Of a stretch of 64,000 bases of DNA, positions 26,051 through 46,243 are shown in pieces. The position numbers were made by a program, and so were the translations under genes. The stretch is from NCBI GenBank assembly GCA_963662655.2, contig CAXXTU010000002.1, forward strand, positions 1,696,001 to 1,760,000, in the 5' to 3' direction. This stretch comes from Candidatus Cloacimonadales bacterium. GTDB taxonomy: Bacteria > Cloacimonadota > Cloacimonadia > Cloacimonadales > JAIOQZ01. The notes below the pieces were generated by a model. It did not search any database and was not told the origin of the DNA. It saw only the letters and a list, made by a program, of their open reading frames with translations. Numbering within the stretch: position 1 is the first letter of the stretch; each line of letters starts with the position of its first letter.

Positions 26051-26659
26051 CTATTCCGGCAGAGCGATGTATCCCTGGATATGGTGGTCCATCGCTCTTT
26101 CTTTGAGCTCCGTCCGCCTCCCGCTCGCGCCGTCGGACAGCGTGAACACCACATTGCCTTCTGCCGAGAATAGAACGTTCTTCGCGAAATTCACCTCAAC
26201 TACCACCCCGATATGGCAGAAATCCTTCTGTCCCTCGAGAAGCTGTCGGAACACCACCAGATCCCCCGCGACTGGCCGATAAGCTTTTGCATCGCGCCAA
26301 AACAGGTTTCCGGGCAGAATCGCCCAATCGTACCACGCACGAACAAGCGCGAGGGTTGGATGATTCGGGATCGGTTGATAGGGAATTGCGTACCCTGCCT
26401 GTCGGGTACAATAGTGGACAAACACCCCGCACCAGGCAAAGCCACTTTCACAATTGCTGAATTGCTCTGTATTGCCGTTCCTGTTCAGCAATACCCTGAA
26501 CGGAGCAAGATACTTCTCGATCGCTTCACCATAGTTGCCCGGCATGATCGCCTGATAATTTTGCATGGCTTCATGTCGTGCGATTTCTATTAACCTTTTC
26601 CTCATACCCGCCAAAAGTCTTTCGCGCTGACCTGTGTCAAGACGTTTACAAGCTTCCAT
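26051..26659 (-). CDS. CHAP domain protein (putative peptidoglycan amidase/peptidase)
   Basis: AWCGVFV, PVAGDLVVF, HIGVV, AEGN catalytic pattern; start codon lies inside the IS direct repeat. Confidence 0.8.
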   Translation of the reverse strand: MEACKRLDTGQRERLLAGMRKRLIEIARHEAMQNYQAIMPGNYGEAIEKYLAPFRVLLNRNGNTEQFSNCESGFAWCGVFVHYCTRQAGYAIPYQPIPNHPTLALVRAWYDWAILPGNLFWRDAKAYRPVAGDLVVFRQLLEGQKDFCHIGVVVEVNFAKNVLFSAEGNVVFTLSDGASGRRTELKERAMDHHIQGYIALPE

Positions 26660-26661
26660 AG

Positions 26662-28155
26662 GAGAGATAACCCCAAATCGGGAGCGAGCGTCCGTTCTGC
26701 CAAAGGGGTGTCATTTTATACCCCCAATTTTTCATACGAACCTGACCTTGAGCTGTAAATGCTCTTTCCACCTTCCTTTATCGGGCTTTATCCAGTACCA
26801 GTCAAACCATCGGAAACACTCCGAAATGACGTAGGTTAACCTGTAGTAAATGAAGTAACCTCGGCGCTTCCAGTCACTTTTCCGTTCGATAAACGCCGAC
26901 ATCATAATCGATTGTAATCCGGGCACATCCGTAATCATCGAGTAAAGAAAACATACAGCGAGCCAGAAGATCGCATTCAGATTTTTCAGCCTGTGGTACT
27001 GCAAAAGGCGAATTTGCTCCCATCCGAAATCTTGCTTGAGTTGCCGGTGCATTTCTTCGACTTTCCATCTCGCACGGTAACTTGTGAGGGTGAACTCGAC
27101 GATCTTTCTTGCGTCCCAGTCACGTCCCGGAAAGTCGCACAAACAGTAAAAGAAACCGCCCTCTTCTCCATCGTGGTATCGCGCGACTACAAGCCACCCT
27201 TCCACCGTCTCCGGATTCTTTACAGGATGAGGATTCAGACGTATCTTGACGCGCTTCAGCCCAGCACGGAAATGATGTCCCGCATTCCAAAAATCCATGG
27301 TCAATTTCACTGACTTGCAGACACGCAGAAAGTCTTTTTCTTCAGCATCCTCGTCTATCAAATTGCGCGTACCTTTACTGCGAATAATGAACGAGTTTCC
27401 ATTGGCGTGGAAATGTCCGATCAACGAACGAATATCGTACCATCGATCCAACACGAAAACGCCACGATTGTTGCTATGGATCGTTATTTCATCGATTTGA
27501 TCACGTGTAACCGTTGAACGGGTATCATGCTCGATTTTGCTACTGTATATCTTGCTGCAAAGCGGAACGATCGAATGATTTGAAGGCGTCCCGACCAGGG
27601 CGACAGCATTGATCAAATGATAGCCTGACTCTGTTTTGTTGGCACTGGCGTCTCGTATCTTTTCCAGGCCTTCCATACGAGTTGCGTAAGGCTTGACGAT
27701 ATCGCTTTCGTCGATAAAGATCAGGCTGTCTCGTTCGAGCCGACGACTTTGCGAAGCTAACAGAATATCATGGATATCCGATGCTAAATCTTCTTGATCG
27801 AGATGTCGGTATAAGCGTCCACTGGTCTTGCGTAATGGGATTTGTTCATGTAGCGAACGGGCTGCCTGGCGTACGATTACGCTTTGACTGGCGAGAATAC
27901 CTTTCGTCATTTGTTTCAAGAAGTTGAAGCGTGGAACACTGAGTTCCGCCTTGTACTTGCGCATGAAATTGTGAAATTTTCCTTGCATCTGGTGGAACTG
28001 CTGCTTAAGTTGACCTTGCATATTGGCTCCTTTGTTAGTTTTTTGGTCGAAACTATTTTGGCAAAGGAGCCTTTTTTCACAATCTATTTCTTCTCAAATC
28101 CGCTAATAATAACATGTCTCCAGCTTTTGCCTAAATCTTTTTGGGGGTATTCCTG
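26662..28155 (-). mobile_element. IS4-superfamily-like insertion sequence, about 1.49 kb
   Basis: Flanked by the direct repeat GTTTACAAGCTTCCATAG (26644-26661 and 28156-28173). Imperfect terminal IRs: GAGAGATAACCCCAAA versus CAGGAATACCCCCAAA (12/16). Confidence 0.85.
26732..28021 (-). CDS. DDE transposase (IS4-like, YREK motif)
   Basis: IFIDESD, VLDRWYD, YRARWKVEEMHRQLKQ. Confidence 0.9.
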   Translation of the reverse strand: MQGQLKQQFHQMQGKFHNFMRKYKAELSVPRFNFLKQMTKGILASQSVIVRQAARSLHEQIPLRKTSGRLYRHLDQEDLASDIHDILLASQSRRLERDSLIFIDESDIVKPYATRMEGLEKIRDASANKTESGYHLINAVALVGTPSNHSIVPLCSKIYSSKIEHDTRSTVTRDQIDEITIHSNNRGVFVLDRWYDIRSLIGHFHANGNSFIIRSKGTRNLIDEDAEEKDFLRVCKSVKLTMDFWNAGHHFRAGLKRVKIRLNPHPVKNPETVEGWLVVARYHDGEEGGFFYCLCDFPGRDWDARKIVEFTLTSYRARWKVEEMHRQLKQDFGWEQIRLLQYHRLKNLNAIFWLAVCFLYSMITDVPGLQSIMMSAFIERKSDWKRRGYFIYYRLTYVISECFRWFDWYWIKPDKGRWKEHLQLKVRFV

Positions 28156-28340: not shown

Positions 28341-31300
28341 TTACTTCTTCCTCGTATTCTTGCGGGATGTATCCGCTTTTCGCTGAGGCTGAACGCTCTC
28401 GGTTTGCACTTCAACCCGGTTCACTTCTTCCATTATCCCATGATTCACGCTTGTCATTACTGGGAGCGCCCATCGCACTTCATCTGTAGATGCGACAACA
28501 TGGAAATACTGCCTGCTCTGTGTTACAGGAAGATCCCAAGCTGTTCCGGCAATGATCGCCGCTGGACTGCCCCAATCTCCCACATAAGGATCGGATGAGG
28601 TGAATATCTTGTACGAACTCGCGCCCGGAACGGCATTCCAGGTCAGATGGAAAGCGCCTTCGGAATACTCGATCGCCAGATTCTGCGGAGCAGCCAAAGC
28701 ACCGCTTTGCCACGGATCGAATAGCACGGCTCCGTAACTTCCATTGTTCTCATCATCAAAAATATGCGAATCGATCGTCAGTGAATCCGGGTAGTCCCAC
28801 ACATTGTAAAACGCGTTGATGTCGTATGCGCTATAGTTTGCCACCTGCCACACGCCGCCATCGTTATCGTGGATATGGTTGTTGCCAATATCCTCGACGT
28901 TCTGATTGCCCAGATTCGGCTGGCAATTACCCTGAATCAGTACGCCATACGATTGATTGTACCGGACAATGGAGTTCCTCACCATAGGATTGGAGTTGTT
29001 GATATCCACCCCGTACTGAGCGCTATACTCGATCAGACATCCATCCAGCATGCACGCGCCGGTATCGATTAATTGAATCCCGCTGTCGATTCCGTTTGTG
29101 TTACCTGCATAACATACATATAGATTCTCCATCGATGCTTCGCCGATCAATGCCCCGCTTCCACTGACACGGATACCGTACCAGTCTCCCACCGATGGCG
29201 AGCTTGCCGTTCCATCCGAGTTCGTGTCCCCATAGATGGAGTCGTCCTTCAGCGATGTCATCACAACCGGCTCAATAGCCGTTCCGGCCACATTCAAGGT
29301 TCCAGTAACATACAAATACCCATCGGCGCTGTTTTTAAAAACGCTGCCAGGCTCGATATTCAAGACACCTGTATCCAATACATTCAACGCATTCCCAGGG
29401 ATAAACGGAAATCCATCCTCCGAATCGATCGTTACATCGCTATCGACATTACATCGTAGAAACATTCCGTTGATCTGGTTGCCGGATCCGGTATTCCCGT
29501 TCATACTTTGCAAGATACCCTCGATGTACCTCAAGCCATATTCACCGTTGTCGATGAAGCTATTATTCTGAATCACGGGCGCTGATGTAGAACCGTAGAT
29601 CAATATTCCGGAAAACGCGTTCCCCTCGAACGTCGATTCCGTAAATTCGGGAGAGCTGCTCTCGATCCTGATGCCCTCTCGCTGGCTGAATGACGACTCG
29701 CTATTGCTGAATCTGCACGATTCATCCGCGCTCAGGAACTTAAGGTTTGCATCGATGCTATTGCTGTTTCCCCCGTAAAGAATCCGGCAGTGATCGAATT
29801 GCCCGATTCCTTCATTGGTTCCCGTGCCGTTGATCTGGATTCCGTACCAGTCACCGCCGGCAGGCTCGGACGCGTCCAGATCGTGGTTGGTGTCTCCGCC
29901 GATCTCATCGTCCTTGATCGAGGTGATGTATATTTCATTTCCGTAATTTCCAGAAGCAATCAAGCTTCCCTGCACGTTAAGGAGCGACGATGGCTGTCCC
30001 TTCACTCGGACACCCGGTAGGAACTCCAGACTTGCCCCAGATTGCACGAAAACTGTCCCAGATAGAATGAATGGAAACGTTGAAGAACCGCATTCCCAAA
30101 CAGCGTTCCCGGAAACGGTTCCCCGTACGCCGAAACCGTTATAACCGTTGTCGCTCCCCGCGTTGCCGCTGTAGGAACTAATGATCGTGTCCTCCAGGAG
30201 CACTCCGTACGAACCGTTCGATGTAAACACGTTGTTATTGATTACAGGATTGGAAGTCGTTGTCTGACCATAAATTCCATTCAGAACGTTATGGCTGAAC
30301 ACTGAGTTCACGATTTCCGGACTCGAGTACTGAATATGAATCCCGTGCTGAGCGCTGTATTCGCAAAGACTGTTCGAGAACCACGAGCTCTCCGCCTCAT
30401 AGAAACGCAGGCTTGCATCCAGGCCATTCAAATTGCCGCCATAGGCGAATATGCAGTTGTCGAACTGGCCGACTCCGTCGTTATCGCTAGAGCCGTAAAT
30501 ATAAATGGCATCCCAGTCTCCCGGTACTGCATCCCCGTTATCGCCATCGGTATCACCCGATCGTGCATCGTCTTTTATCGAAGTGAACACGACCGGTGAC
30601 TCACTCGTCCCGTTCGCGTCCAGCGTCCCGAAAACGGTCATTCTTCGTTGCCAGCCTGATTTGATCGTCGTTCCGGCAGAAAGCGTCAATACGACATCGT
30701 CATTGACCGTGATCGCTTCGTACATGATGAATGGAAAATTCGGGTCCGTGTTATGCGACCATACCGCGTCCGCTGTGACCGTTCCGCCCAGTCCGAACCC
30801 GTTGTAAACATTCCCGCTGCCGGAATTATCCGAATACGAACACAATGTGCATCCGCTCAGATATACGCCGAAAAACCCGTTATCATTGAACGTGCAGGCG
30901 TCGATTGTAGGCATGGAGGCAGCGCTGTTGGCGTAGATACCACTGCTCAAGTTGTTGTTGAACTGTGAACCGGAGATTTCCACGCTGCAATTGTATATGC
31001 GAATTCCGTAAACGTGGCTGAAGTTGCACTCGCTGTTACGGAACCACCCGTGCGAGTTATTGAAATAAAGGTTTGCATCGAAATTCGAAGTGTCTCCGCC
31101 ATAGCGAATACTCACATGATCGTACTTGCCCCAACTGTCGTTGGTGTGCCGGATACCATGCCAGTCACCCGGTTGAGGCGTCGTGCTCGTCGAATCGCTG
31201 TTGGTATCTCCGCCGATGCTATCGTCTTTGAGGGAGGTAAACACAATCTGATCGCGCGCGGTGCTTTCCGCATTCATGGTACCTTCGATGTAGACCGCGC

Positions 31301-34300
31301 TTCCGCCCACTGCCTTGAAGACCGTCCCCGGGACAATGGTAAGCGTATCGCCGGAGTAAACGGTTATCGCACCGGTAATAATGTACGGGAAAGACGGAGC
31401 GGCTCCCGACCATGTGACGACATCGTCGGTAACGCCGTTGATACCGAAGCCGTTGTAACCGTTACCCGATCCGGTATTGCCTTCATACGAGTTGAGCAGG
31501 ATATTGTACAGATGTGCCCCGTAACCGACGTTGCCGTAAAACGTATTGTTGTTGATCGTCGCCAGCGTTGCCGTCCCGGTTCCCTTGATCCCATTTTCGA
31601 GATTGTCGGCAAGAACGCAATTGTGTATCTGCGCCGAGGAGTTGTAGAGGTAAATCCCATCTCTGGCACTTTTCTCGAAAGTGCAATTGGTGATCATCGA
31701 GCCGAAATCCGCATGAAGATAGAGGTTGGCATCGCTTGTTCCGGCCGAATTCCCGCCGTACCGGAAGATACAGTTTTCAAGCACAGCAAATCCATCGCTT
31801 TCGCTCCCCACGATCCAATAGCCAAACCAGTCGCCAGGCTGGGCGGGATCCGTGGAATCGTTCGTATCACCGCCGTATTCATCGTCTCGGAAGCTGGTGA
31901 ACACGATCGGATGCAGCGAATCCGCCACTGCGTTCAGGCACCCATTGATGTAGTGCTCCACGCCACTCGACTTCACAATGGAGCCTGGAGCCAGATCGAG
32001 CGTCATGCCCAGAGGAACCGTGACCGAGGCCGGATGAACAAACGGGAAATCCGCTGCGCCGGAAGCCCAGTACGACGACTCTCCCAGCGTTCCGTTCAGC
32101 GCGAAACCGTTGTAACGGTTACCCGTACCGCGATTGCCCGTGTATGAAATCAGCCGACAGCTGTTGAGGTAAATGCCGTAGCTTCCGTTATTGTCGCAAA
32201 CATTGTCTGTCAGGTGCGTAACCGTTGTCGTTCCGCTTGAATAAATGCCATTTAAGCTGTTGTTCGAGCACACGTTGTTTTCCAGCCACGTCACGTTCCC
32301 GAGATTATGAATTCCGTTCGATGAGCTGAATTCGATGATTGAATTCCGTACATAGCAGGAATCGCTGTTGGAAAATTTCAGATTGGCATCGGCAGTTCCG
32401 GCTGTGTTCCCGCCATAACGCACATAACACCACTCGTACCGTCCAATTCCCTGATTGTTGCTGGAACCGTCATGCAACACCCCATACCAGTTTCCCGCTG
32501 CCGGGGATGTCGTAGCGTTATCCGTATCCCCGGAAAACGTATCGTCGTATATCGAGGTGAATACAATCGGGTCCTCTTCCGTTGCGATCGCGTTAATTTC
32601 CCCGTACACAGACATCTGTCTAGAATCCTTGAACTTGAGCGTCGTGCCTGGGGAGATGTTCAGTACACTGTCCGCTTGCACGGTAATATTGGCATCAGCA
32701 ACATAAGGGAAGCTCGGGTGCGATTGCGTCCAGACTGAACCGTTCGCCACAATACCGCTTATACCGACACCATCGATGCCGTTGCCCGATCCGCTGTATC
32801 CCTCGAGAGAGTGCAGTAGAACATTGTTGAACAAAGCTCCATGCTGTCCGTTGTCATAGAACTCGCAACCGTAAACGTAAGGGTTTGTGTTGGTTCCGCT
32901 CAAGTATACACCGTTCAACAGGTTGCCACGGAAGACGCTGTTTTGTATATTGACGTCGCAACCAACTCCCCTGATACCTTGCGTAGAGCTGTATTCGATC
33001 CAGCCGTCGTTGAAATGGAAATCATCGCAGTAAAAAAGGTAAATATTCGCGTCCGGAATGCCACTGCTGTTACCGCCGTATCGGATCCGGCAGTAGTCGA
33101 AATGACCAATCCCCTGATTTTCGTTAACGCCATATACATAGATGCCTTGCCAATCTCCGGTTGAGGGATCGACTCGTGCCCCGTCCGTGTTACCGCCAAA
33201 GCTGTCGTCCCGGATGGACGTTATCACGACCGGTGAAACGGAGGTTCCATTGGCGTCCAGCGTGCCATAGCAAGTGAGAGAAGAATTCATTTCCGCTTTT
33301 ATAATGGTTCCCATCAGGAGCGTAAGACTTGCCCCCTGCTGGACCGTGTTGGAAGCATTTAAAATGAATGGAAACGACGCCTGCGGGTGCGACCACTCGA
33401 CATCGCCGAAGATATTGCCATACACGGCGAAACCGTTGTATTGATTACCGGTTCCCGTGTTACCGCTGTAATCCATCAAGTGGCAGCCATTCATGAATGC
33501 GGCATAGTTCTGATTATCGGTAAATGTACAGTTGGTTACGACAGGCTCGCTGTCGCTTCCGGTCACGTACAACCCGTTGTGGAGATTCCCGGTGAAATGG
33601 CTGTTCGTGATGATCGGAGCGCATTGGTTGGCTCTCAATCCCCGCATCGCGCTGTACTCGATGTGGCTGTTGTTGAAAATAGCGCTTGGGGAACTGCTGA
33701 AATAGAGGGCGCAGTCATAGGACGAACTCGTGTTTCCTGCATAACGGATTCTGCAATAATCGAATTCCCCGTTTCCGGGGGAGTCAACCGAACTATATGC
33801 ACATTGAATTCCCATCCAATCTCCGTGAGAGGGGCTTGTTGCGTCCTCGTTGTTGTTTGTGTCGCCGCCGTACGTATCGTCATGAATCGATGTGATGACG
33901 ACCGGCCGAGCGGAGGTTCCGTTGACATCGATACTCGAATAGATATTGAAGTTAGCGCCTCCGAGTCCCTTGATGACGGTTCCTTCATGTATCGTTAAGG
34001 GCTGCCCCTCAGAGAATATCAGGCCGCCATTGACGACAAACGGGAAATCTTCGTTGTCTTGAAGATGGCTCGCGCTGAACCCACCGGTCAGAACAATGCC
34101 GTTGATTCCGTTGTTGTCGCCGGAGTTCTGGATAACGGAATTGTATCCGATCTGGCTTCCCGTTGTTATATAAGCCGCATAGCTTCCGTTGTTCTCGAAA
34201 GTGTTGTCAATAACCGTGACAACCGCGTTCTGGTTGATGTAAAGTCCATACTGTCCGTTATCGGAAAACGAACAATGCTGAATATCGGGAGAGCACTGAT

Positions 34301-34796
34301 AGGTCTGCAAACCGTGGTTCTGACTGAGACCAATGGTGCAGTAGTAGAATGTACACCAGTCCCCCGCAACCCGGATGTTGGAATCGTAAACGCTCAGGGT
34401 GTTTCCTCCGTAGCGCACAATCGCATAGTTCATCGTGCAGGTACCGTCGATATTGATGCCATACCAGTCACCCGGCTGGGGATCGCCGCTCGAATCGCCG
34501 ATACTCTGGCCAACGGAGTCGTCGTTCTTCGAGGTTATGTAAACGGGACTCATGGACGTTCCCTGTGCGACAATGTCTCCGTAGCAATTCAAAACGGTGC
34601 TGCCGTTGAACTTGACAACCGCCCCGGCAGCAATGGTCAGCGTTGAGCCCTCGTTGACTGTCGCGTTGGATGTAACATACCACGTGTTACCGCCCGTAAG
34701 CGTCATTCCTGAAATATCGCCCGAAAGAACGCTGTATGATAATAGCGCACCGGGCAATAGCAAAGCAAGGAAAAGAATCATCGGAATTATCTTCAT
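28341..34796 (-). CDS. Large secreted parallel beta-helix repeat protein (putative surface protein/adhesin)
   Basis: Signal peptide; nine modules of about 220 aa with VFTSxxDDxxGGDTN...GDWxGI; N-G-rich coils; FN3-like C-terminal segment. Confidence 0.85.
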   Translation of the reverse strand: MKIIPMILFLALLLPGALLSYSVLSGDISGMTLTGGNTWYVTSNATVNEGSTLTIAAGAVVKFNGSTVLNCYGDIVAQGTSMSPVYITSKNDDSVGQSIGDSSGDPQPGDWYGINIDGTCTMNYAIVRYGGNTLSVYDSNIRVAGDWCTFYYCTIGLSQNHGLQTYQCSPDIQHCSFSDNGQYGLYINQNAVVTVIDNTFENNGSYAAYITTGSQIGYNSVIQNSGDNNGINGIVLTGGFSASHLQDNEDFPFVVNGGLIFSEGQPLTIHEGTVIKGLGGANFNIYSSIDVNGTSARPVVITSIHDDTYGGDTNNNEDATSPSHGDWMGIQCAYSSVDSPGNGEFDYCRIRYAGNTSSSYDCALYFSSSPSAIFNNSHIEYSAMRGLRANQCAPIITNSHFTGNLHNGLYVTGSDSEPVVTNCTFTDNQNYAAFMNGCHLMDYSGNTGTGNQYNGFAVYGNIFGDVEWSHPQASFPFILNASNTVQQGASLTLLMGTIIKAEMNSSLTCYGTLDANGTSVSPVVITSIRDDSFGGNTDGARVDPSTGDWQGIYVYGVNENQGIGHFDYCRIRYGGNSSGIPDANIYLFYCDDFHFNDGWIEYSSTQGIRGVGCDVNIQNSVFRGNLLNGVYLSGTNTNPYVYGCEFYDNGQHGALFNNVLLHSLEGYSGSGNGIDGVGISGIVANGSVWTQSHPSFPYVADANITVQADSVLNISPGTTLKFKDSRQMSVYGEINAIATEEDPIVFTSIYDDTFSGDTDNATTSPAAGNWYGVLHDGSSNNQGIGRYEWCYVRYGGNTAGTADANLKFSNSDSCYVRNSIIEFSSSNGIHNLGNVTWLENNVCSNNSLNGIYSSGTTTVTHLTDNVCDNNGSYGIYLNSCRLISYTGNRGTGNRYNGFALNGTLGESSYWASGAADFPFVHPASVTVPLGMTLDLAPGSIVKSSGVEHYINGCLNAVADSLHPIVFTSFRDDEYGGDTNDSTDPAQPGDWFGYWIVGSESDGFAVLENCIFRYGGNSAGTSDANLYLHADFGSMITNCTFEKSARDGIYLYNSSAQIHNCVLADNLENGIKGTGTATLATINNNTFYGNVGYGAHLYNILLNSYEGNTGSGNGYNGFGINGVTDDVVTWSGAAPSFPYIITGAITVYSGDTLTIVPGTVFKAVGGSAVYIEGTMNAESTARDQIVFTSLKDDSIGGDTNSDSTSTTPQPGDWHGIRHTNDSWGKYDHVSIRYGGDTSNFDANLYFNNSHGWFRNSECNFSHVYGIRIYNCSVEISGSQFNNNLSSGIYANSAASMPTIDACTFNDNGFFGVYLSGCTLCSYSDNSGSGNVYNGFGLGGTVTADAVWSHNTDPNFPFIMYEAITVNDDVVLTLSAGTTIKSGWQRRMTVFGTLDANGTSESPVVFTSIKDDARSGDTDGDNGDAVPGDWDAIYIYGSSDNDGVGQFDNCIFAYGGNLNGLDASLRFYEAESSWFSNSLCEYSAQHGIHIQYSSPEIVNSVFSHNVLNGIYGQTTTSNPVINNNVFTSNGSYGVLLEDTIISSYSGNAGSDNGYNGFGVRGTVSGNAVWECGSSTFPFILSGTVFVQSGASLEFLPGVRVKGQPSSLLNVQGSLIASGNYGNEIYITSIKDDEIGGDTNHDLDASEPAGGDWYGIQINGTGTNEGIGQFDHCRILYGGNSNSIDANLKFLSADESCRFSNSESSFSQREGIRIESSSPEFTESTFEGNAFSGILIYGSTSAPVIQNNSFIDNGEYGLRYIEGILQSMNGNTGSGNQINGMFLRCNVDSDVTIDSEDGFPFIPGNALNVLDTGVLNIEPGSVFKNSADGYLYVTGTLNVAGTAIEPVVMTSLKDDSIYGDTNSDGTASSPSVGDWYGIRVSGSGALIGEASMENLYVCYAGNTNGIDSGIQLIDTGACMLDGCLIEYSAQYGVDINNSNPMVRNSIVRYNQSYGVLIQGNCQPNLGNQNVEDIGNNHIHDNDGGVWQVANYSAYDINAFYNVWDYPDSLTIDSHIFDDENNGSYGAVLFDPWQSGALAAPQNLAIEYSEGAFHLTWNAVPGASSYKIFTSSDPYVGDWGSPAAIIAGTAWDLPVTQSRQYFHVVASTDEVRWALPVMTSVNHGIMEEVNRVEVQTESVQPQRKADTSRKNTRKK

Positions 34797-37413: not shown

Positions 37414-37498
37414 ATCCGATGCACCTTCGCCCGATCGCACCACTCCGTCGTGGATATAACACGCCTGCGCGCCGGATCGAACGAATCTGCTATCGGAT
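37414..37498. repeat. Dispersed structured hairpin element, copy 2 (short, inner stem missing)
   Basis: ATCCGAT-GCACCTTCGCCCGATC...GATATAACAC...GATCGAACGAATCTGC-T-ATCGGAT. Confidence 0.85.
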
Positions 37499-37587: not shown

Positions 37588-37615
37588 TTGACATAGCGCT
37601 CCTTTTTCGTACATT
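37588..37615 (+). promoter_or_regulatory. Putative sigma70 promoter of the terS-terL-portal module
   Basis: TTGACA-N16-TACATT preceded by an AT-rich UP-like tract; GGAGG RBS at 37623. Confidence 0.65.
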
Positions 37616-37633
37616 CATACGCGGAGGGTGTAT

Positions 37634-38056
37634 ATGTCAGAAAAGAAAGCAGTCGAATTCGATCCCAATCTTCATCCGCATCTGGTGTATCTATATCGCG
37701 ACCGCGGGTACACGCAGAAGAAGATCGCTGAAGCTCTTGAGATCAGTGTTGGGCAATTGATGAGCTGGATCAGGATGTATCCTCGGGTCAAGCAGGCTTA
37801 TCAGATTGTTCCGGAGAAAATGGACATCGTCATCGAGGAAGCGCTCAAGAAGATGATGGATGGCTACGAGAAGAAAGAAACCATCGAGACGTACAAGACG
37901 AACAAGGAGGGTCAGGAGGAGCTTGTGGAGCGCAAGGTCACGACAAAGCACGTCGATGGTAACCCAACTGCGCTGAAGATATGGGTGGAACGCTTCCTCA
38001 AGGACAACGACGAGGACTTCGGCGAGGACTACGAAGAGGCGGAGTTTTCCGAGTGA
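37634..38056 (+). CDS. Putative terminase small subunit (N-terminal HTH)
   Basis: HTH GYTQKKIAEALEISVGQLMSW; GYEKKE...VTTKHV..NPTALKIW pattern; GTGA overlap with terL. Confidence 0.7.
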   Translation: MSEKKAVEFDPNLHPHLVYLYRDRGYTQKKIAEALEISVGQLMSWIRMYPRVKQAYQIVPEKMDIVIEEALKKMMDGYEKKETIETYKTNKEGQEELVERKVTTKHVDGNPTALKIWVERFLKDNDEDFGEDYEEAEFSE

Positions 38057-39288
38057 ACCTGAGGCTCCGGCGCAAGGATTTCCTCCCCCACCAGTGGGAA
38101 TTCCTGACCAGCGAGAATCCGATCAAGGCGCTGGTTTCCGGATTCGGCGGCGGCAAGACGCATGTGTTCTTGCGGGAAACGCTGTTGAACCACCTCTTCA
38201 TGAGAAACCGCAGGGGAAAATCCAACGGCTGGATTGTGTATCCCACCTACGCATTGGCAGAAGAGCTGTTCTGCGAACCATTCCAGGAGCTGCTTCGCAA
38301 GTACCGTATCCGCTTTGATTATAAGGCAACTCGACTTCGCTTCGAGAGCAAGTACGGCGTGATCCGCGTCTACCAATTGCAAACACCTGCGCGCATGGTG
38401 GGGAGCGAACTGACCTACATCGGTTTCGACGAGTTCGACATCGGTAGCTACAAGAATTGCGAAATCGCCTATCAGAAGGCGATCGGGCGACTCAGAGGCT
38501 GCGAGAACGCCAGGCTGTACATTGTAACAACGCCGGAAGGCTTCCATTATACCTACAAACTCTTCAAAGAGGAAGGGGCGGCCAAACATCTCATACAAGC
38601 AAAGACAACTGATAATCCCCACCTTCCGGCGAGTTACATCCACTACCTGAGAAGCCAGTACGACGAGAACCTCCTCAGGCGCTACATGAACGGGGAGTTC
38701 GTCAACCTGAACACCGCGCAGGCGTACTACAACTTCGAGCGTGAGCGGCACGTGAAAGAGGTCGAATGCACGTACGCGCCGGAATACTACGTCGGCATGG
38801 ATTTCAACATCGACCCGATGACGGCGGTGGTCGGCGTGTTCCGCGACGACAGGTATGAGGTATTGAACGAGTTCTGGCTCAAGAACAGCAACACCGAACG
38901 CATGTGCAAGGTTATATCGCAGGACTTTGATCCGAACCGGATCGTCGTGTACCCGGACATGACGGGCATCAAGCGTTCCACCAGCGCCGCGGTGGGACTC
39001 ACGGACATCAAGATTCTCAAATCGAACGGATTCCGCGTCAAAGCGACACGCAACCCGCTGGTGAGAGACCGCATCAACGCGGTCAACAACGCGCTCGCGA
39101 AAGGCAAGCTCCTGATCCATCCGCGATGCAGGCACCTCATCCGCGACCTCGAGCAGGTCAGTCGCGACAAGCACGGCGAGCTGGACAAGTCCAGCCCCGA
39201 TTTGACCCACATATCCGACGCGATGGGATATGCGGTCTGGAACCTGTTTCCCATCGTCAGTCAACCCGACTGGCGGACATCAGCATAA
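38053..39288 (+). CDS. Phage terminase large subunit
   Basis: Q-motif LPHQ, Walker A GFGGGKT, Walker B IGFDE, motif III TTPEG; nuclease GMDFN...HISDAMGY. Confidence 0.92.
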   Translation: MNLRLRRKDFLPHQWEFLTSENPIKALVSGFGGGKTHVFLRETLLNHLFMRNRRGKSNGWIVYPTYALAEELFCEPFQELLRKYRIRFDYKATRLRFESKYGVIRVYQLQTPARMVGSELTYIGFDEFDIGSYKNCEIAYQKAIGRLRGCENARLYIVTTPEGFHYTYKLFKEEGAAKHLIQAKTTDNPHLPASYIHYLRSQYDENLLRRYMNGEFVNLNTAQAYYNFERERHVKEVECTYAPEYYVGMDFNIDPMTAVVGVFRDDRYEVLNEFWLKNSNTERMCKVISQDFDPNRIVVYPDMTGIKRSTSAAVGLTDIKILKSNGFRVKATRNPLVRDRINAVNNALAKGKLLIHPRCRHLIRDLEQVSRDKHGELDKSSPDLTHISDAMGYAVWNLFPIVSQPDWRTSA

Positions 39289-39306
39289 CAAAAAGGAGAG
39301 GCATGA

Positions 39307-40683
39307 ATGGAAACGATGATCAGAAACATGCAACAGGCTTCGCGCTGGAACGAAGACATCCAGCGCAGGCTGCGCACGAGAAAGTACCTGGATTATTACC
39401 GCAACCGGTGCAAGGAATACATCGCGGAGCGGATCGACAGCATGGTCGATGGCGAAGAGGCGAAGGAGCTCAAGAAGTACATCGAGCACGACAACATCAC
39501 CGAGCGTTTCGTCGATGAGATCAGCCTGGTCTTCGCCGAGAAGGTGAAAATCACCGCGAGGCGAAGAAAGCCGGACGGCTCGCTCGTCGAAGACGCGGAA
39601 GCCCAGAAGGAGATCGAGCGGCTGCTGCGGCAGACCCGGTTCCAGGTCACAATGAAAGAGGTTGAACGCCTCACCAAGCTCATCTTCGACGTCGCCGTAC
39701 TGCCGCAGGTTCGCGACGGCAAGGTAGAGCTGGATATCATTACCGGGGACAAGGCGTTCGTAATCCAGCAGATCAAGAACACGGTCAAGGCCGAGCAGTT
39801 CTATTATCAGGTCGGACTCAGGGAAAATACCGCGCTCGCGGAACGCGTAGATATCTTCCACTTCTGGACGGCTGATGGACGCAAATACCAGTGCGAGATC
39901 ATGGCCAACGGTCAGCCGGACCCGCAGAGCGTCACCCATCTCAACCACATTGCGTATCCGAACATGCCGGTCGTCATGTTCCGCAACTATCTCCCCATCG
40001 ATACCTTCTGGTTCGACGGCGAAAACGCCATCGTTGAGAAGAATATCGCCATCGATCTCAAACGCACCGACCTCGCCATGGCCGAGGCCTACAACATACC
40101 GCAGCTCTTCACAACAGGCACGCGCGAGAATCAGGACATGAAAAAGGGCCGCACCTTCAAGATCGATATCCCACGCAACGACATGGGAGAAGCCGTAGGA
40201 GATGCCAAGTATCTCTCTCCCAACGAACCGCTGAAGGAACTGAACGAGATGATTAACAGCCGCATCGAGCAACTCGGGCTTTCAAAGGGTCTCTCCAAAT
40301 CGCTGATAAGCGGGACGACGGTTTCCTCCGGCTACGCGCTTGCGCTGTCGAAATACGAGATCGTCGAGAGAAACCGCAGACAGCGCGACTATTACTACGA
40401 TTCCGTTCTGGAACTGGTCGAAAACATGATCATTACCGCGAATCGGGGACTTGGGTGGGAAATCCCGGAAGACCTGGTTCTCGGAGTCGATTTCGGGGAA
40501 ATCCGCTTCGGCGTTTCGGATCAGGAGAAGGAAGAAATCCGTCAGATGAAGCTTCAAAACGGCACGATCTCGCGCATCGATATCATGCTGGAAGACAATC
40601 CCGAACTGGATCGCGATATGGCGATCGAACAAGCGACACGCATCGATTCCGAAAACCTGCGATTCGCACAGACAGCTTCGTAA
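39307..40683 (+). CDS. Putative phage portal protein (SPP1 gp6-like)
   Basis: 458 aa directly after terL; YLDYY, NITERFVD, PVVMF, SGYAL, GTISR motifs typical of SPP1-type portals. Confidence 0.7.
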   Translation: METMIRNMQQASRWNEDIQRRLRTRKYLDYYRNRCKEYIAERIDSMVDGEEAKELKKYIEHDNITERFVDEISLVFAEKVKITARRRKPDGSLVEDAEAQKEIERLLRQTRFQVTMKEVERLTKLIFDVAVLPQVRDGKVELDIITGDKAFVIQQIKNTVKAEQFYYQVGLRENTALAERVDIFHFWTADGRKYQCEIMANGQPDPQSVTHLNHIAYPNMPVVMFRNYLPIDTFWFDGENAIVEKNIAIDLKRTDLAMAEAYNIPQLFTTGTRENQDMKKGRTFKIDIPRNDMGEAVGDAKYLSPNEPLKELNEMINSRIEQLGLSKGLSKSLISGTTVSSGYALALSKYEIVERNRRQRDYYYDSVLELVENMIITANRGLGWEIPEDLVLGVDFGEIRFGVSDQEKEEIRQMKLQNGTISRIDIMLEDNPELDRDMAIEQATRIDSENLRFAQTAS

Positions 40684-40697
40684 CAATAGCAATCTCA

Positions 40698-41091
40698 GGC
40701 ATGAGCAGATTCGTTCGATCTGCCATGAAGACGGGGTGTTACACGTCTAATTTCGGCTTTCGCATAGCGGAAACGAAATCACGAGCGTTGTGATTTCATG
40801 CAATGAAATCATGTTAGCGGATTTTCGGCTTTCGCATAGCGGAAACGAAATCACGAGCGTTGTGATTTCATGCATTGAAATCATGTTAGCGGATTTTCGG
40901 CTTTCGCATAGCGGAAACGAAATCACGAGCGTTGTGATTTCATGCATTGAAATCATGTTAGCGGATTTTCGGCTTTCGCATAGCGGAAACGAATACTTGA
41001 GCGTAAGCCTTTCGCTACGCGAAAGGCGAAAGCGCATAATTAGACGTGTTATATCCCCTTCTCAGGGTAGATCGGGCGAAGATGCCATGCC
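40698..41091. repeat. Dispersed structured hairpin element, copy 4, with loop expanded by a tandem array
   Basis: GGCATG-A-GCAGATTCGTTCGATC...ACACGTCTAATT [array] AATTAGACGTGT-TATAT...GATCGGGCGAAGATGC-CATGCC. Confidence 0.9.
40751..40993. repeat. 72-bp tandem repeat, 3 full units plus 27 bp
   Basis: Units start at 40751, 40823, 40895 and 40967; one substitution seen (TGCAATG versus TGCATTG). Confidence 0.95.
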
Positions 41092-41104: not shown

Positions 41105-41953
41105 TCAATTGACCATCATGTCCCCATATCCCCGGTAGTAGGTCTCCCCAACCTTTATATAGTAATACAATCGCAGCAGCTCCCCTGCCTCCGCCTCGAT
41201 ACCCGTTGCGGTAACCGTATGCCACCCCGCGTTTACCTGAGAATCCACGATCCCTCGTACGAGCTCGCCATCCTCATCAATAAGGACGATTACCACCCAG
41301 GCCTGGGAGTTGACAGTGAATCCGATCGTAAACGAATCGTGGAACGAATTGGGGTATGCCGGAAAGACTCTCGGGTAACTCGCCGGCTCTGCGATCTCCC
41401 CGAAATCGATCGAAGCGGGACCTGTTATCTCCGGTGTTTCAACTCCATCCGTGTAGGCGAGTAGCCAGTAGTAATAAATGAAACCCTCGTGCAATCCCTC
41501 ATCCATATAGCTGTACAAATGCGATTCCGTGTAATTTCCGGAAGGAATGATGTCGAACGTGATAGGAATCGATGTCTCATAGGCCGGTTGGAGACTTCTT
41601 CGCAGGTGATACCCAAGCATATTGTTTTCGTAATCGGTTTCCCAGTGTATCGAGCAGTTGTCTTCCGAGAACTGATAGACATAGAACGAATCGACATACA
41701 CATACCGGCCACCGGCATTCACTCCCCGTCCGCTGACCATCTCCATGTGCCAGTCGAGGCTGTCGATCGGAGTCAGGAGATCGCCATCAGCGCCCATGTG
41801 GGTGTAACCATTGAAATCGCCGATGTACGCTTCGAAATCATAGCCATCGATCTCCACCCACTCCTTCTTCTCGGGCGAAGTCGAATCGTCATCGCATCCG
41901 GCAAACATGATCAGCATCACGATGCCGAATATCAAAATTGCACCTTTATTCAT
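41105..41953 (-). CDS. Lipoprotein with C-terminal FlgD-Ig-like segment
   Basis: Lipobox FAGC; WETDYENNMLGY; AYPNSF motif. Confidence 0.7.
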   Translation of the reverse strand: MNKGAILIFGIVMLIMFAGCDDDSTSPEKKEWVEIDGYDFEAYIGDFNGYTHMGADGDLLTPIDSLDWHMEMVSGRGVNAGGRYVYVDSFYVYQFSEDNCSIHWETDYENNMLGYHLRRSLQPAYETSIPITFDIIPSGNYTESHLYSYMDEGLHEGFIYYYWLLAYTDGVETPEITGPASIDFGEIAEPASYPRVFPAYPNSFHDSFTIGFTVNSQAWVVIVLIDEDGELVRGIVDSQVNAGWHTVTATGIEAEAGELLRLYYYIKVGETYYRGYGDMMVN

Positions 41954-43938
41954 CGCTCATCCTCTTTATATGGATTTCCATAATCAATAACCCTGTGAAT
42001 CTCTCCTGTCTTGTCAAACAATATCCACTCCCCGGATCGCATCCCATTGACGTAATCGCCCTGAAGCTTGCTCCCATCGGGTGTCCACTCTGTCCATCGC
42101 CCCTGACGTAAACCAGCCTCTATATTGCCTTCCGCCACCGGGCTGTTATTGCAGCCGAAGAAACGCCACACACCTTCTCGGTTGCCCAGGTCATACGAAC
42201 CGACAGCATAATTCCCGCCCGGATACTGCTCCAGCCATACGCCGTCCTTAAGGCCCGAACGATACTCGCCCTCCGAAACGATATTCGCCTGACTATCGAA
42301 AAACTGCCAGTGCCCTTCTCGATTTCCATCTCGTATCACTCCCTTCATAACAAGCCTTTGCCCTGCGTCAAACACTCTCAGATTGCCTGAGTGACTCCCG
42401 TTCTTGTATTCTTGCGCATACAAGTTGTCATCACCACGACAACGACTCACCCACCATCCGATGCGCTTCCCCGAATATTCGATTCCATACTCGGACGTCC
42501 CGTCATCAGACGTGGTAAAGAAAAGCCCCTTTGGCTCTCCATTCAAGTAAAGCCCTTTTGTATAGATACCGGTTTCTTCGTCCCAAGATTCGCATAGGCC
42601 GTTCAACCTGCCGTTCTCAATTGTACACAGGCAATACGAGCCATCTTGATCCTGCCGAAAAACGCTCCCTTCAAGAGTCCCCATATCGTACTGCGCAGTC
42701 ATCCGAACTCGTCCATCCCCACTGTAAAACTCAGCAACGCCATCTCGTGAGCCGCTTCGATACGTAACGCGCGAACAAACCGAGCCATCCACACGACACA
42801 CAATTGAAAAGCCCTCTTCCACCGGTAGTTGCTCCTCATCGAGATAAAAATCCTCAAATGGATCGTACATTCGATAGCGATGAACCTCTCTTAATACTCC
42901 TCGTCCATCGTAAATCAGTCTTTCTCCGACTTCCTGTCCATTCGTAAAGTGGCTTTCCCTGCTAAGCGTTCCCTGTTCGTCGAACCATGTCCATTTGCCT
43001 TCACGTAATCCCTTTCGGACATCGCCCTCACACCAGGAGCCGTCCGCAAAATAATCCACCCAGCGCCCGTCGGGGATCCCGCGCTTGTATCCATGCAACC
43101 AATCGAGCTTTCCATCGCTGCCGCGTGCGCTCCAGTTGCCGATCCTCAGATTGTTGTTGAAACTGCCCTGTACCGTTTCGCCTCCGGAATAATAGAAACG
43201 CCACTTGCCTTCCATCTTCCCCTGCTTGTACTCCCCCTCCGAGCGCATCGCGTCGGTGGAATCCCAGCTTGTCCAGTAACCGGTTCGAAGATCGTTGGTG
43301 TACTCACCCTCGAAACGCACGCCCTGCTCGTCCCATTCCTTCCAGATGCCCTGCTTCCGCTCGAAGCGGATAACACCCTCCGAACGCTTCGAACCGTCCG
43401 GGTACCACATAATCCACTTTCCGTCCGCGTAATTGTTGGCGTAAGCGCCCTGACCCTCCGGTTTCCCGTCGGGATACCATTTCTTCCACGCGCCGTTGAG
43501 CTTTCCGTCCACGTAGAAACCTTCGCTACTCATGATACCATTGGGATGCCAGGTAATCCACGCCCCGTCCTGCTTTCCATCCTTGAAAGCTCCCTGGGCC
43601 TGCTTTTCCCCGTTTTCGTGGTAAACCACCACCATCGTATCCACAAACACATCGGGATCGACCGATTCCAGTCGCGTCCGCATCCGCAAACTCCCCGAAC
43701 GATAATAATCGCTCACGAATCCCTTCGGTTTCCCGTCCTCGTATTCGAGCTCACGATAATAGACGCACCCTTCCTCTCGCTTAACCGGCTTCCAGTAGCG
43801 ATCGAACCAGTGAATCCATTTCCCGGTGCGTTTCCCATTCGCATCTAACTGATTCGGAGCCCCGGGAAGCTCTGCATATAGGGCGTACAGGCTGAAAAGC
43901 GCCAGCAGAAGAAAAAGAAATTTCCTTGGTTTCATCAT
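41950..43938 (-). CDS. Secreted MORN-variant (YwqK-like) repeat protein
   Basis: Signal peptide; many GxWxxWYxDGxxxxEGxY repeats. Confidence 0.85.
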   Translation of the reverse strand: MMKPRKFLFLLLALFSLYALYAELPGAPNQLDANGKRTGKWIHWFDRYWKPVKREEGCVYYRELEYEDGKPKGFVSDYYRSGSLRMRTRLESVDPDVFVDTMVVVYHENGEKQAQGAFKDGKQDGAWITWHPNGIMSSEGFYVDGKLNGAWKKWYPDGKPEGQGAYANNYADGKWIMWYPDGSKRSEGVIRFERKQGIWKEWDEQGVRFEGEYTNDLRTGYWTSWDSTDAMRSEGEYKQGKMEGKWRFYYSGGETVQGSFNNNLRIGNWSARGSDGKLDWLHGYKRGIPDGRWVDYFADGSWCEGDVRKGLREGKWTWFDEQGTLSRESHFTNGQEVGERLIYDGRGVLREVHRYRMYDPFEDFYLDEEQLPVEEGFSIVCRVDGSVCSRVTYRSGSRDGVAEFYSGDGRVRMTAQYDMGTLEGSVFRQDQDGSYCLCTIENGRLNGLCESWDEETGIYTKGLYLNGEPKGLFFTTSDDGTSEYGIEYSGKRIGWWVSRCRGDDNLYAQEYKNGSHSGNLRVFDAGQRLVMKGVIRDGNREGHWQFFDSQANIVSEGEYRSGLKDGVWLEQYPGGNYAVGSYDLGNREGVWRFFGCNNSPVAEGNIEAGLRQGRWTEWTPDGSKLQGDYVNGMRSGEWILFDKTGEIHRVIDYGNPYKEDER

Positions 43939-44051
43939 TGTGATTCTTGATTCATCATTTGTTATTCGTCAAGGAGATTCATTTTCACGCATTCATATCG
44001 TGAGGGGTAGTAACATCGCGAGAGTGAGCAGTTCAATTATGGAATGGCTCG

Positions 44052-44624
44052 TCAGAAGTTCAAGCCGAAGGTCATTTGCCATGCGGCGATATCGACGTAA
44101 TCGCTATCGTTCCAGTAATGTACGTTCTCATTCGGGGTCATGCTTGTCGCGAAATACTTCACTTGCACCTGGAAAACAGAACTCTGGAAGCCAAGAAGAA
44201 AATGGAGCCCGTACGAAGCGCTGGTCTGGGTGCTGCTGCCATCGGTCGTTTCGCCCTTCCACTCGGCATGCTCCCAATGAAAGTAATATCCGGTTCCGAC
44301 CCCCATATAGACATAGGACCAAACGCCACCTTCACGTACCAGGAATGTGGTTGTTAGTGGAATCAAGCGATAGTAGTAATCCATGTCGCCCAGTGCGTTG
44401 TTCCCACTTGACGAACTCTCGCTATAGATATAGTCGATATTGATTTCCGATCCGTAACCTTCTTCTCCCCACTTACGAATCTCCATCCCGAACGAATACG
44501 CGTCGTCGTAGGCATTGTCGAATTGATGCTGCGGAATCAGGTAACCAACGTGAAAACCGACAATCGCCGGTATTTCAACGATAGCAAGGCAGAGAATTAT
44601 CATCGACAGTAGCCGTTTTCTCAT
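44052..44624 (-). CDS. Small outer-membrane beta-barrel protein
   Basis: Signal peptide; IPLT, YMGVGTGYY; C-terminal TFGLNF. Confidence 0.75.
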   Translation of the reverse strand: MRKRLLSMIILCLAIVEIPAIVGFHVGYLIPQHQFDNAYDDAYSFGMEIRKWGEEGYGSEINIDYIYSESSSSGNNALGDMDYYYRLIPLTTTFLVREGGVWSYVYMGVGTGYYFHWEHAEWKGETTDGSSTQTSASYGLHFLLGFQSSVFQVQVKYFATSMTPNENVHYWNDSDYVDIAAWQMTFGLNF

Positions 44625-44632
44625 CGATTCCC

Positions 44633-45250
44633 CTATATCATCTCATGGGCGCTTTCTTCCGGCTCTTCCGATTCTTCCTGCTCGTGGACACCAACTTCTT
44701 GCAAATCCACCCTATCGGGAATCAACCGCCAACCGTACGCTGTGTCAATGATTTGTGGAATGGTCAACATGAACTTCTTACCGCTGTATTCGAAACGAAT
44801 CTCCATCCGCTGGACATCCTGATGAAAGAAACGCTGATCAACCGGCGATGCCTTCATGATCGCCCTTTCGACAGCATTCCAATTGATCCGGTAGTTATTC
44901 TCGCCGATGTTCTTCACCGTCCAGAACTCCGTCTCGAACTGATCATCGAGCTGCTGAAGCAACTGAGTTGTCCGGTACACTTGAATATCGTATTCCTTCT
45001 TCTCCTGAGCGCTCAAAGCGGAGTAGTTTTCCTCCAGCTTCTTCATCATGATCATCCTGTGAAGCTGAACCGGCGTAAGTACATTCAGCCGCATCCGATC
45101 GTAATCGCTTGCTGCAATGGCTTCGATGATCGAATCGGCCAACGCCTGACGGGTCGAATTGCGCTTCTCTATCGAGATGTCTTTCGCGGCACATCCGGAG
45201 AGTATCATTACAGCTAAGATCAAATATATAATCGCTTTACCGTTCATCAT
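44633..45250 (-). CDS. Hypothetical lipoprotein
   Basis: Lipobox LSGC; operon position. Confidence 0.7.
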   Translation of the reverse strand: MMNGKAIIYLILAVMILSGCAAKDISIEKRNSTRQALADSIIEAIAASDYDRMRLNVLTPVQLHRMIMMKKLEENYSALSAQEKKEYDIQVYRTTQLLQQLDDQFETEFWTVKNIGENNYRINWNAVERAIMKASPVDQRFFHQDVQRMEIRFEYSGKKFMLTIPQIIDTAYGWRLIPDRVDLQEVGVHEQEESEEPEESAHEMI

Positions 45251-45633
45251 GGAATCTTCACGTCTTCCTTTTTCCGTTTGAAGAAATACTTCTCGCCAAA
45301 CACGTTGGTGATTTCCATCTCGTCCCGACGCAGGAAGACGTAATCCATACGCTCCACAGGCTTCTCCATCGGGTGGAAGATCATGGTTTTGTAATCGTAC
45401 TGGAAGAAGCCTTTGTTCAGCTCCGATTTCACGTTACCGTCAATGTCCGATTGAACGAGCATGGAATAGGTGCTGTCCGCGTGCAACTCCAGACGAATCA
45501 GGTCGCCGTTTTGCCGGGGACTCGCCCACTCCCAGGTACCGTATATCGTTGTCGAGTCCTGTCGGGAATTCTCTTTTGAGCATGCCCCGAGCAGAATCAT
45601 CGTTACCAGAAACGTAAATAGCCAATACTTCAT
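45247..45633 (-). CDS. Lipocalin-like lipoprotein
   Basis: Lipobox LGAC; IYGTWEW...LELHADSTY. Confidence 0.65.
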   Translation of the reverse strand: MKYWLFTFLVTMILLGACSKENSRQDSTTIYGTWEWASPRQNGDLIRLELHADSTYSMLVQSDIDGNVKSELNKGFFQYDYKTMIFHPMEKPVERMDYVFLRRDEMEITNVFGEKYFFKRKKEDVKIP

Positions 45634-46091
45634 CAGTATTTCCCAACAACTCCCCGTACCCATTCAACGATGGCGGTTTCATCTTTAAGCGGCGTCTTCA
45701 CACTGATCGTGTCCAGAACCGTAGCGGACGGGAAGAGCGCTTTCATCTGTTCGAGCGTGCGTCCCGGTTTGTCCGCGCATGTGCAGAAGAATGCTACCTT
45801 CTTGCCTGCCATCGGATACGAAGCCCCAAGAGAATTGATCATCGGGGCGGCGTGGCCGGCCCAGACGGGGCCCCCCACAAAGATCAAATCGTACTCGGCG
45901 GGATCGATCGCAAGTGGCTCCATATCGGGTGCCATTTTCATCATCGCTTGAAAACCCGCGATGATCACAGGCTGCAATTTTTTCCCTTTCGGTACAAGCT
46001 TGATCATGTCTCCAGCTGTCACCGAATGAATCACCTCAGCAATCCGCTCTGTTTTTCCTGTAGCAGAGAAATAAAGTACCAGTGTGTTCAT
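45633..46091 (-). CDS. Flavodoxin family protein
   Basis: YFSATGKTERIA, YDLIFVGGPVW, GKKVAFFCT; GGAGG RBS. Confidence 0.88.
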   Translation of the reverse strand: MNTLVLYFSATGKTERIAEVIHSVTAGDMIKLVPKGKKLQPVIIAGFQAMMKMAPDMEPLAIDPAEYDLIFVGGPVWAGHAAPMINSLGASYPMAGKKVAFFCTCADKPGRTLEQMKALFPSATVLDTISVKTPLKDETAIVEWVRGVVGKY

Positions 46092-46243
46092 GTGCAACCT
46101 CCCTGATATACCGGAATTTATGGACGATGATTTTGTTGTCAACCAAAGAGTGACCTCGCTTCATTCTGCCGAAAAAAAAGATTCTTGACATCTTTCGATT
46201 CAAGTGGATACTTAATGTAGATTTACACGACAACAAAGCAGGT

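Follow-up and report, generated by a model that had tools for sequence, protein, structure and literature searches.

A phage-derived packaging operon and its distant head-tail-lysis operon in a family of Cloacimonadales: a candidate domesticated particle system

Introduction

Why would a bacterial chromosome carry the genes of a phage DNA-packaging motor with no capsid, tail, integrase or replication gene beside them? The question is raised by a stretch of 64,000 nucleotides (hereafter the window; C2:1,696,001-1,760,000) from the genome of a Candidatus Cloacimonadales bacterium (G000; 3.81 Mb in two contigs, rated 98.95% complete), in which three adjacent genes encode a small terminase (TerS), a large terminase (TerL) and a portal protein. 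An earlier note on this DNA had described the trio as a stand-alone, domesticated module and had offered three forms for it, i.e. part of a system resembling a gene transfer agent (GTA) and split across loci, a satellite, or an anti-phage decoy. Here we report that the trio forms the packaging part of a gene set of phage origin, kept as chromosomal genes in this family, represented by eight genomes (G000-G007) in four genera. The set is very probably a family-wide, host-maintained domesticated phage particle system. That its job is gene transfer, which would make it a GTA of independent origin known here from genes alone, is the reading we favour, with clearly less confidence.

Results

Three intact packaging genes

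The first gene, terS (37634..38056, forward strand), encodes a protein of 140 amino acids with an N-terminal helix-turn-helix (phrog_309, E 2.8e-14; Pfam HTH_23 above cut-off). It is followed on the same strand by terL (38053..39288; 411 amino acids; phrog_2, E 1.9e-41; Terminase_6N and 6C above cut-off), whose inferred GTG start overlaps the terS stop, and by the portal gene (39307..40683; 458 amino acids). The sequence match of the portal protein is weak (phrog_533, E 6.8e-6), and its structure model (predicted local distance difference test, pLDDT, 76) resembles solved phage portals with a best E of 2.8e-12. TerL contains GFGGGKT (residues 30-36), GFDEFD (124-129), TTPEG (159-163), GMDFN (248-252) and HISD (386-389), which we take to be the Walker A, Walker B, coupling and nuclease (RNase H-like) motifs, all of them kept. 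With all reading frames open as well, the description of the trio as three intact, tightly spaced packaging genes on one strand holds. Both terL and the portal gene are single-copy in G000. The cultured terminases nearest to TerL are those of HK578-like coliphages (Dhillonvirus, 35% identity), and headful packaging is predicted for one Dhillonvirus in the available part of PMC9022532. A sequence search of solved structures with TerL gave no match.

The helix-turn-helix match of TerS spans residues 17-49, a region that is kept in G001, G003 and G006 and that diverges faster than the C-terminal part of the protein (50-70% against 70-94% identity). This faster drift fits relaxed and changing specificity equally well. 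The 108-amino-acid gene that precedes terL in G004 and G007 has no HTH_23 match.

Upstream of terS lie a predicted ribosome-binding site (GGAGGG, 37623..37628, forward strand), kept in G001 and G003, and a predicted sigma-70-like promoter (TTGACA-N16-TACATT, 37588..37615, forward strand; 10 of 12 matches). The promoter sits where the earlier note had placed it. Promoter-like sites are not more frequent than expected by chance in 7 kb (5 found against 5.8 +/- 2.2 expected), so that its presence alone says little, but it is the best-scoring of these sites and is kept, with the same spacing, in all four aligned upstream regions. The host-like codon style also claimed for the trio stands for terL and the portal gene (87th and 98th percentile among 1,729 host open reading frames, ORFs) and not for terS (26th percentile). 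We dropped codon usage as strong evidence because a resident Mu-like prophage scores equally high.

A head-tail-lysis operon elsewhere in the chromosome

The suggested genome search for capsid, protease and tail genes found the capsid and tail genes outside the window, in a compact operon on the reverse strand (locus L030; G000:C2:1,345,012-1,353,855) at 379,779 bp from terS; no prohead protease was recognised. The trio is thus stand-alone at its locus, as claimed, but not in the genome. The operon opens with a scaffold gene (188 amino acids; phrog_194), the major capsid gene (319 amino acids; PF20911, E 5e-23) and a likely decoration protein gene (151 amino acids; weak phrog_427), followed by a likely adaptor and a likely terminator, both named by position only (245 and 150 amino acids), the tail tube (318 amino acids; phrog_290, and PF18906 under the cut-off) and two likely chaperones. 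Next come a tape measure (361 amino acids; phrog_25241), a tip protein resembling viral LamG-domain proteins (591 amino acids), genes of 149 and 58 amino acids and, last, an M15 endolysin (phrog_894). A scan of 12 operon proteins, five of which have no family match, recognised no tail sheath. The capsid model (pLDDT 80) is nearest to the Carin-1, BPP-1 and epsilon15 capsids; in the same fold search the capsid of the Rhodobacter capsulatus GTA (RcGTA) ranks 29th, at 9% identity and far below the BPP-1-type capsids. A predicted complex of two portal copies with the putative adaptor scored 0.00 and was used neither for nor against any reading.

The two blocks belong together by linkage in relatives. 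In G004 and G007, which form one genus, the head-tail genes and terS-terL-portal lie in a single cluster between host genes, with the portal gene at its end. On the G001 contig the blocks are 2.3 Mb apart. Integrase and replication genes are missing beside both blocks. Of 87 flanking ORFs, drawn from five genomes (both loci) and G005 (one locus), none matches a family of integration, tail, connector or lysis proteins at E<=1e-5; the set consists of 84 of 108 candidates, kept after removal of probable shadow frames, duplicates and ORFs already scanned, and three additions. The DNA-metabolism matches in the flanks are a DnaX-like gene, an ABC ATPase and two ParA-like ATPases, all in host operons, and the one weak match to a 'virion structural protein', 10 kb downstream, is a LamG protein. 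The flanks are as the earlier note had read them: an MsbA-like exporter, a lipoprotein operon and no recognised phage debris.

The scaffold gene is preceded at the same place by CTTGACA in all eight family genomes. The leader also holds a palindrome followed by an A-run (CGGTG-N5-CACCG; G000:C2:1,354,046-1,354,063, L030:16047-16064), which is single-copy in six of the eight genomes and absent from G004 and G007 (the pattern was fitted to those six). It is possibly an operator or an RNA hairpin; the head-tail leader matched no Rfam family.

Some features of this operon vary between genomes. The adaptor-like protein (L030:13076-13813), for which a structure atlas gave no usable match, carries an insertion of about 100 residues in the genus of G000 (g1; G000, G001, G002 and G003 in the trees), in G006, in two genomes outside the family (G011 and G119) and in a viral contig; the insertion is absent from G004, G005, G007 and the phage contig L087. 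Two 133-amino-acid genes, labelled pilin-like by eye, diverge from the head-tail promoter in G001 and G003 (L046:4820-5852 and L047:4786-5807) and lie in the same region in G002; their homologues in G000 are 50 kb away, with comM in their place. We considered comM as a clue to function and rejected it, since it adjoins the operon in G000 only and in none of the fetched regions of relatives.

Single-copy inheritance across the family

Across 232 genomes of the phylum (the eight of the family and 224 others), the capsid gene was found in 10, namely in all eight family genomes, as one close copy each, and in two of the 224 others. Its identity is 89-91% within the genus, 64-77% within the family, 56% in G011 and 36% in G119. 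The portal gene was found in 9 of the 232 genomes, six of them in the family, and TerL of G000 has matches in 6 of 41 genomes. A scan of 185,579 species genomes with a pattern drawn from the capsid alignment, a search of limited sensitivity, yielded 223 candidate stretches; nine were confirmed, of which eight are labelled Cloacimonadota or Cloacimonadales and one is unlabelled.

Two prophages served as controls. The capsid gene of prophage B occurs in one of the eight family genomes, whereas a gene of the Mu-like prophages occurs in seven (1-6 matches each, many of them partial; no match in G006), so that we do not accept family-wide presence by itself as sufficient evidence. The identities of the Mu-like gene ignore host distance (97% in G001, 79% in another genus, 57-59% in G002 and G003). 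Such a pattern indicates horizontal spread and contrasts with the particle genes, which occur as single intact copies.

Both blocks are under purifying selection. Pairwise ratios of nonsynonymous to synonymous substitution rates (dN/dS; Nei-Gojobori), which are approximate given that dS is near saturation in most pairs and incomputable for some, were 0.08-0.16 for terS, 0.06-0.12 for terL and 0.06-0.11 for the portal gene (three genus pairs), and 0.03-0.05 for the capsid gene within the genus. In the least saturated pair, G002-G003, the head-tail genes gave 0.05-0.17 and the endolysin 0.33. Synonymous divergence of terL and the portal gene (dS about 1.0-1.5) compares with 0.8-1.2 for rpoB. The check on synteny and selection that the earlier note had asked for thus gave a downstream operon conserved in G001 and G003 and dN/dS of 0.06-0.16 for the trio. 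None of the outcomes it had named as signs of a simple remnant (absence from close relatives, neutral dN/dS, a complete prophage at this locus in sister strains) was found.

All trees are unrooted. The rpoB tree gives G000,(G001,(G002,G003)) and a family clade, and a tree of eight joined virion proteins recovers the same order in the genus (support 88 and 99) and sets G011, G119 and the viral contig apart from the family copies with a support of 100. A three-gene tree (capsid, decoration, portal) with a further phage contig again separates family and phage copies at 100. Single-gene trees of capsid and tail tube resolve little.

A contiguous, longer phage ancestor

Phage-type relatives of the set still occur in public data. 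In two IMG/VR contigs (L058 and L059) and a metagenome contig (L085), terS-terL-portal, a gene of about 246 amino acids, scaffold, capsid and decoration genes are contiguous. The phage-type contigs as a whole (L058/L059, L085-L097 and a prophage-like copy in G119) carry homologous genes in the same order as the family, at identities of 28-48% for the terminase, 27-45% for the portal and 35-43% for the capsid, with homologues of scaffold, decoration, adaptor and tube as well. They differ from the family copies in being contiguous, in keeping the ~246-amino-acid gene and a tail-completion gene, and in the length of the tape measure, which is 899 amino acids in the phage type and 767 in G119 but 361, 319 and 317 in family copies. 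The ~246-amino-acid gene directly follows the portal gene in 7 of 13 metagenome portal loci (the others end early or hold small intervening ORFs), and it was not found in any of five family genomes tested, in a search that had no positive control genome. G011, on short contigs and with a tape measure of at least 423 amino acids, is ambiguous.

A single contiguous siphophage module has thus lost length, and its packaging trio has changed place: in one genus it now closes the cluster, in the rest it occupies another locus. Because the phage-type copies are contiguous and have the longer tape measure, we read the family set as a domesticated, shortened siphophage particle system.

Surroundings of the trio and other prophages

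A genome-wide intergenic repeat lies just upstream of the promoter (37417..37490, ends approximate; 40 distinct 500-bp genome bins) and marks the boundary beyond which the upstream neighbours vary between relatives. Another lies 3' of the portal gene (40690..41050; 68 bins), with a 72-bp unit repeated 3.4 times at 40751-40993; we rejected this array as part of the module, as the repeat occurs genome-wide. Beyond it, a convergent host operon of lipoprotein, MORN and flavodoxin genes (41105..46142, reverse strand) is the conserved downstream neighbour, whole in G001 and G003 and represented by a MORN gene in G006, while the upstream neighbours differ; we treat it as genomic context. In two DNA runs (one sample, contigs only) depth was similar over the trio and its flanks (X1), a result that is uninformative on activity.

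Farther out in the window, a CHAP-like gene adjoins a DDE transposase gene (26054-28021). By similarity, the same pair lies just past the head-tail operon in G002, and a CHAP-like gene lies near it in G003. A secreted repeat protein of 2,151 amino acids (28341-34796) showed no phage family match in the 700 residues scanned; large genes related to it sit near the cluster in G004 and G007. A gene of the XRE-type helix-turn-helix class lies 11 kb downstream of the portal gene (52011-52493).

Elsewhere in G000, Mu-like prophage copies occur on C2 at about 345-366 kb, 477-510 kb, 2,724-2,758 kb, 3,290-3,318 kb and 1-10 kb, and on C1 at 12-21 kb. Many are broken by unrelated gene blocks (by eye, restriction-modification-like and secreted-protein-like ORFs), and within G000 their head genes share 58-97% identity. 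Prophage B (G000:C2:3,378,036-3,415,000) has its own capsid gene (phrog_1005), found in no other family genome. A putative receptor-binding gene is 83% identical between prophages A and B (L054:3260-4392 and L055:3669-4520) and belongs to the same family as a gene missing from the G000 head-tail operon; G006 has a second such pair in a phage-like contig. A shared pool of tail-tip cassettes is possible. ARAGORN also reported a 97-nucleotide tRNA with an unassigned four-base anticodon (G000:C2:3,266,307-3,266,403), which may be a miscalled tRNA-Sec.

Discussion

A likely gene transfer agent, judged by layout and evolution

The split, GTA-like form of the earlier proposal is supported, as head, tail and lysis genes lie 380 kb from the motor, are joined to it in two relatives, and both blocks are under purifying selection. 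A particle of this kind would work as follows. Both operons would be switched on in a subset of cells from their similar sigma-70-like promoters; scaffold, capsid protein and portal would form a prohead; TerS and TerL would cut the host chromosome and fill heads by headful; a short non-contractile tail would be added and the endolysin would free the particles, which would carry host DNA to kin cells where it may recombine. As its genes are without excision or replication functions and far apart, such a particle would be unable to propagate its own gene set. A ComEC domain, found in all eight family genomes and in 10 of 14 control genomes as well, is permissive only.

The layout agrees with the pattern that the available parts of PMC11841831 and PMC12946183 give for GTAs, i.e. 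several loci and no replication genes. Here phage-derived packaging, head and tail genes lie in the chromosome at two loci 379,779 bp apart, with no integration-family match among the 87 flanking ORFs. Vertical inheritance under purifying selection appears long-standing, with the caveats that TerL was replaced in one genus and that the second tree is not resolved. The system is GTA-like by layout and evolution and a candidate member of the class, whose defining tests are experimental; it lacks one common GTA trait, namely a TerS without a DNA-binding domain.

That trait is one of the observations that weigh against a domesticated GTA. TerS keeps its helix-turn-helix (HTH_23), and according to the accessible text of PMC11841831 TerS has no DNA-binding domain in any known GTA. 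In G002 (90% complete) and G005 (81% complete) the searches did not recover the trio. For G002 an assembly gap is suggested, not proven, because the neighbouring lipoprotein also has no full-length orthologue there (best 31%, partial, against 53-54% in G001 and G003). TerL of G004 and G007 is of a different lineage, with 24% identity to TerL of G000 and 58% to that of a phage-type contig (in G007, to L088; the portals of the two share 39%). It suggests either that the terminase was swapped later, and hence that exchange with phages continued, or that domestication took place twice. A putative receptor-binding pair (84 and about 299 amino acids), present in G001, G002, G003, G005 and G006, is missing from G000, G004 and G007, in G000 by a clean junction. 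The tail-completion gene of the G006 operon and the phages is absent from the G000 operon, and a search of G000 for phrog_26 found nothing. In G004 and G007 the cluster holds no recognised endolysin (PF08291 was found elsewhere in G007, and not in G004). Active phages, too, would be under purifying selection, and dS approaches saturation; the three-gene tree does not resolve the order in the genus (support 54-60), and no tree resolves the order of the genera. Finally, the fast change of the receptor-binding gene, taken up below, is as compatible with a killer particle as with a GTA.

Other explanations

The retained helix-turn-helix also allows a variant that we consider rather unlikely, in which packaging would be non-random. 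It would start at one or a few chromosomal sites, because TerS kept its DNA-binding helix-turn-helix, and run into successive heads, as a host-owned form of lateral transduction. If so, relocation of the terminase-portal operon would stop the particle from carrying the system's own genes and determine the chromosomal region that is passed on. The system would then be a first for Cloacimonadota, and a single family would display several domestication stages (blocks joined or split, terminase swap, receptor loss).

The main rival to gene transfer is a PBSX-like killer particle, filled with host DNA and selected to kill competing relatives, to which we give a low probability. The putative receptor-binding gene is the fastest to change, as is typical of tailocins: its copies in G001, G002 and G003 are 44-45% identical, while those of the remaining virion genes are 62-99% identical. 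PBSX itself has a contractile tail, and a contractile sheath gene is a feature of PBSX-like particles and tailocins, yet no sheath gene was recognised in the 12 scanned proteins of the operon; moreover, three of the eight genomes lack the receptor-binding pair and nonetheless keep the packaging motor under selection. The same killer alternative is raised for the GTA of Faecalibacterium (FpGTA) in the part of PMC12946183 that is available.

The decoy option, in which portal, terminase and capsid subunits would be made to poison the assembly of related phages, could draw on the near-consensus promoters before both operons and on the close phage relatives in assemblies from the same habitats. It is improbable all the same. 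Neither preserved ATPase and nuclease motifs nor twelve matching head, tail and lysis genes held under selection would be required of a decoy, and what the family retains goes beyond the motor to an almost complete set of virion genes.

A slowly decaying prophage remnant without host function would explain the stepwise losses (the ~246-amino-acid head gene, tail completion, the receptor-binding pair) and would be in keeping with the many other prophage remains in G000. This reading is already largely refuted, and we hold it to be slightly less probable still: the frames have stayed open across synonymous saturation with dN/dS well below 1, the capsid gene is present in eight of eight genomes of four genera, and both halves kept conserved promoters after they separated. 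Nor does the set behave as an ordinary prophage, which would be contiguous, patchily distributed and provided with integration and replication genes; the prophage controls, too, differ from it.

Last and least probable is a satellite or helper module working with the resident Mu-like prophages: these do occur in seven of the eight family genomes, and two of the prophages, A and B, have genes that are 25-58% similar to the receptor-binding pair missing from the G000 operon, but phage satellites (phage-inducible chromosomal islands or PICI, capsid-forming cf-PICI, P4) bring an integrase and a replication module on a mobile island, whereas neither block has either gene and the set is single-copy and clade-wide, those prophages have terminase-, portal- and head-like ORFs of their own (partly by eye), and G006 holds the full set with no match to the Mu-like gene tested.

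Relation to known systems

The preferred reading, a domesticated particle system that probably transfers genes, has its closest counterpart in organisation in FpGTA, compared here by description from the available portions of PMC12946183. Both have two distant operons (about 125 kb apart in FpGTA, 380 kb here), no replication genes and a near-universal presence in their clade, outside the Alphaproteobacteria. They differ in that FpGTA has TerS, TerL, portal and capsid in one operon, while here the trio is split from the capsid; in that FpGTA is podovirus-like, while the tail here is siphophage-like; and in that its TerS is described there as having no obvious DNA-binding domain, while TerS here has a helix-turn-helix.

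With RcGTA and the Rhodogtaviriformidae the system shares vertically inherited head-tail genes, accessory genes elsewhere, a short tape measure (about 216 amino acids in RcGTA) and perhaps a headful terminase, as far as the accessible parts of PMC11841831, PMC7296036 and PMC7947584 describe them. Its ancestry is different, the modelled capsid being nearest to Carin-1, BPP-1 and epsilon15, and unlike RcGTA it encodes a scaffold, while no prohead protease was recognised. The terL and portal genes of RcGTA lie within its head-tail cluster. Judged from the capsid model, the system is not RcGTA-like by descent. PBSX of Bacillus subtilis is alike in its replication-less, lineage-wide terminase, head, tail and lysis genes (partly after the available text of PMC12946183), and differs from the present system, in which no sheath was recognised and the packaging genes lie at a separate locus in most genera.

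What the system may mean for the family

We found no paper on such a system in Cloacimonadota in the literature searched, which excludes subscription journals, and new GTAs are called hard to find by sequence in the available part of PMC11841831. How often phages are domesticated into GTAs is an open question, to which this family would add a candidate independent origin in a phylum where we found no precedent. Because the ancestral phage family is still present in public metagenomes, comparison with it shows directly what changed on domestication: the packaging operon was relocated, the tape measure shrank to less than half its length, and specific genes were lost. The retained helix-turn-helix of TerS offers a test of the idea that loss of this domain makes GTA packaging non-specific, and the system points to the habitats of this family as the place to seek the particles.

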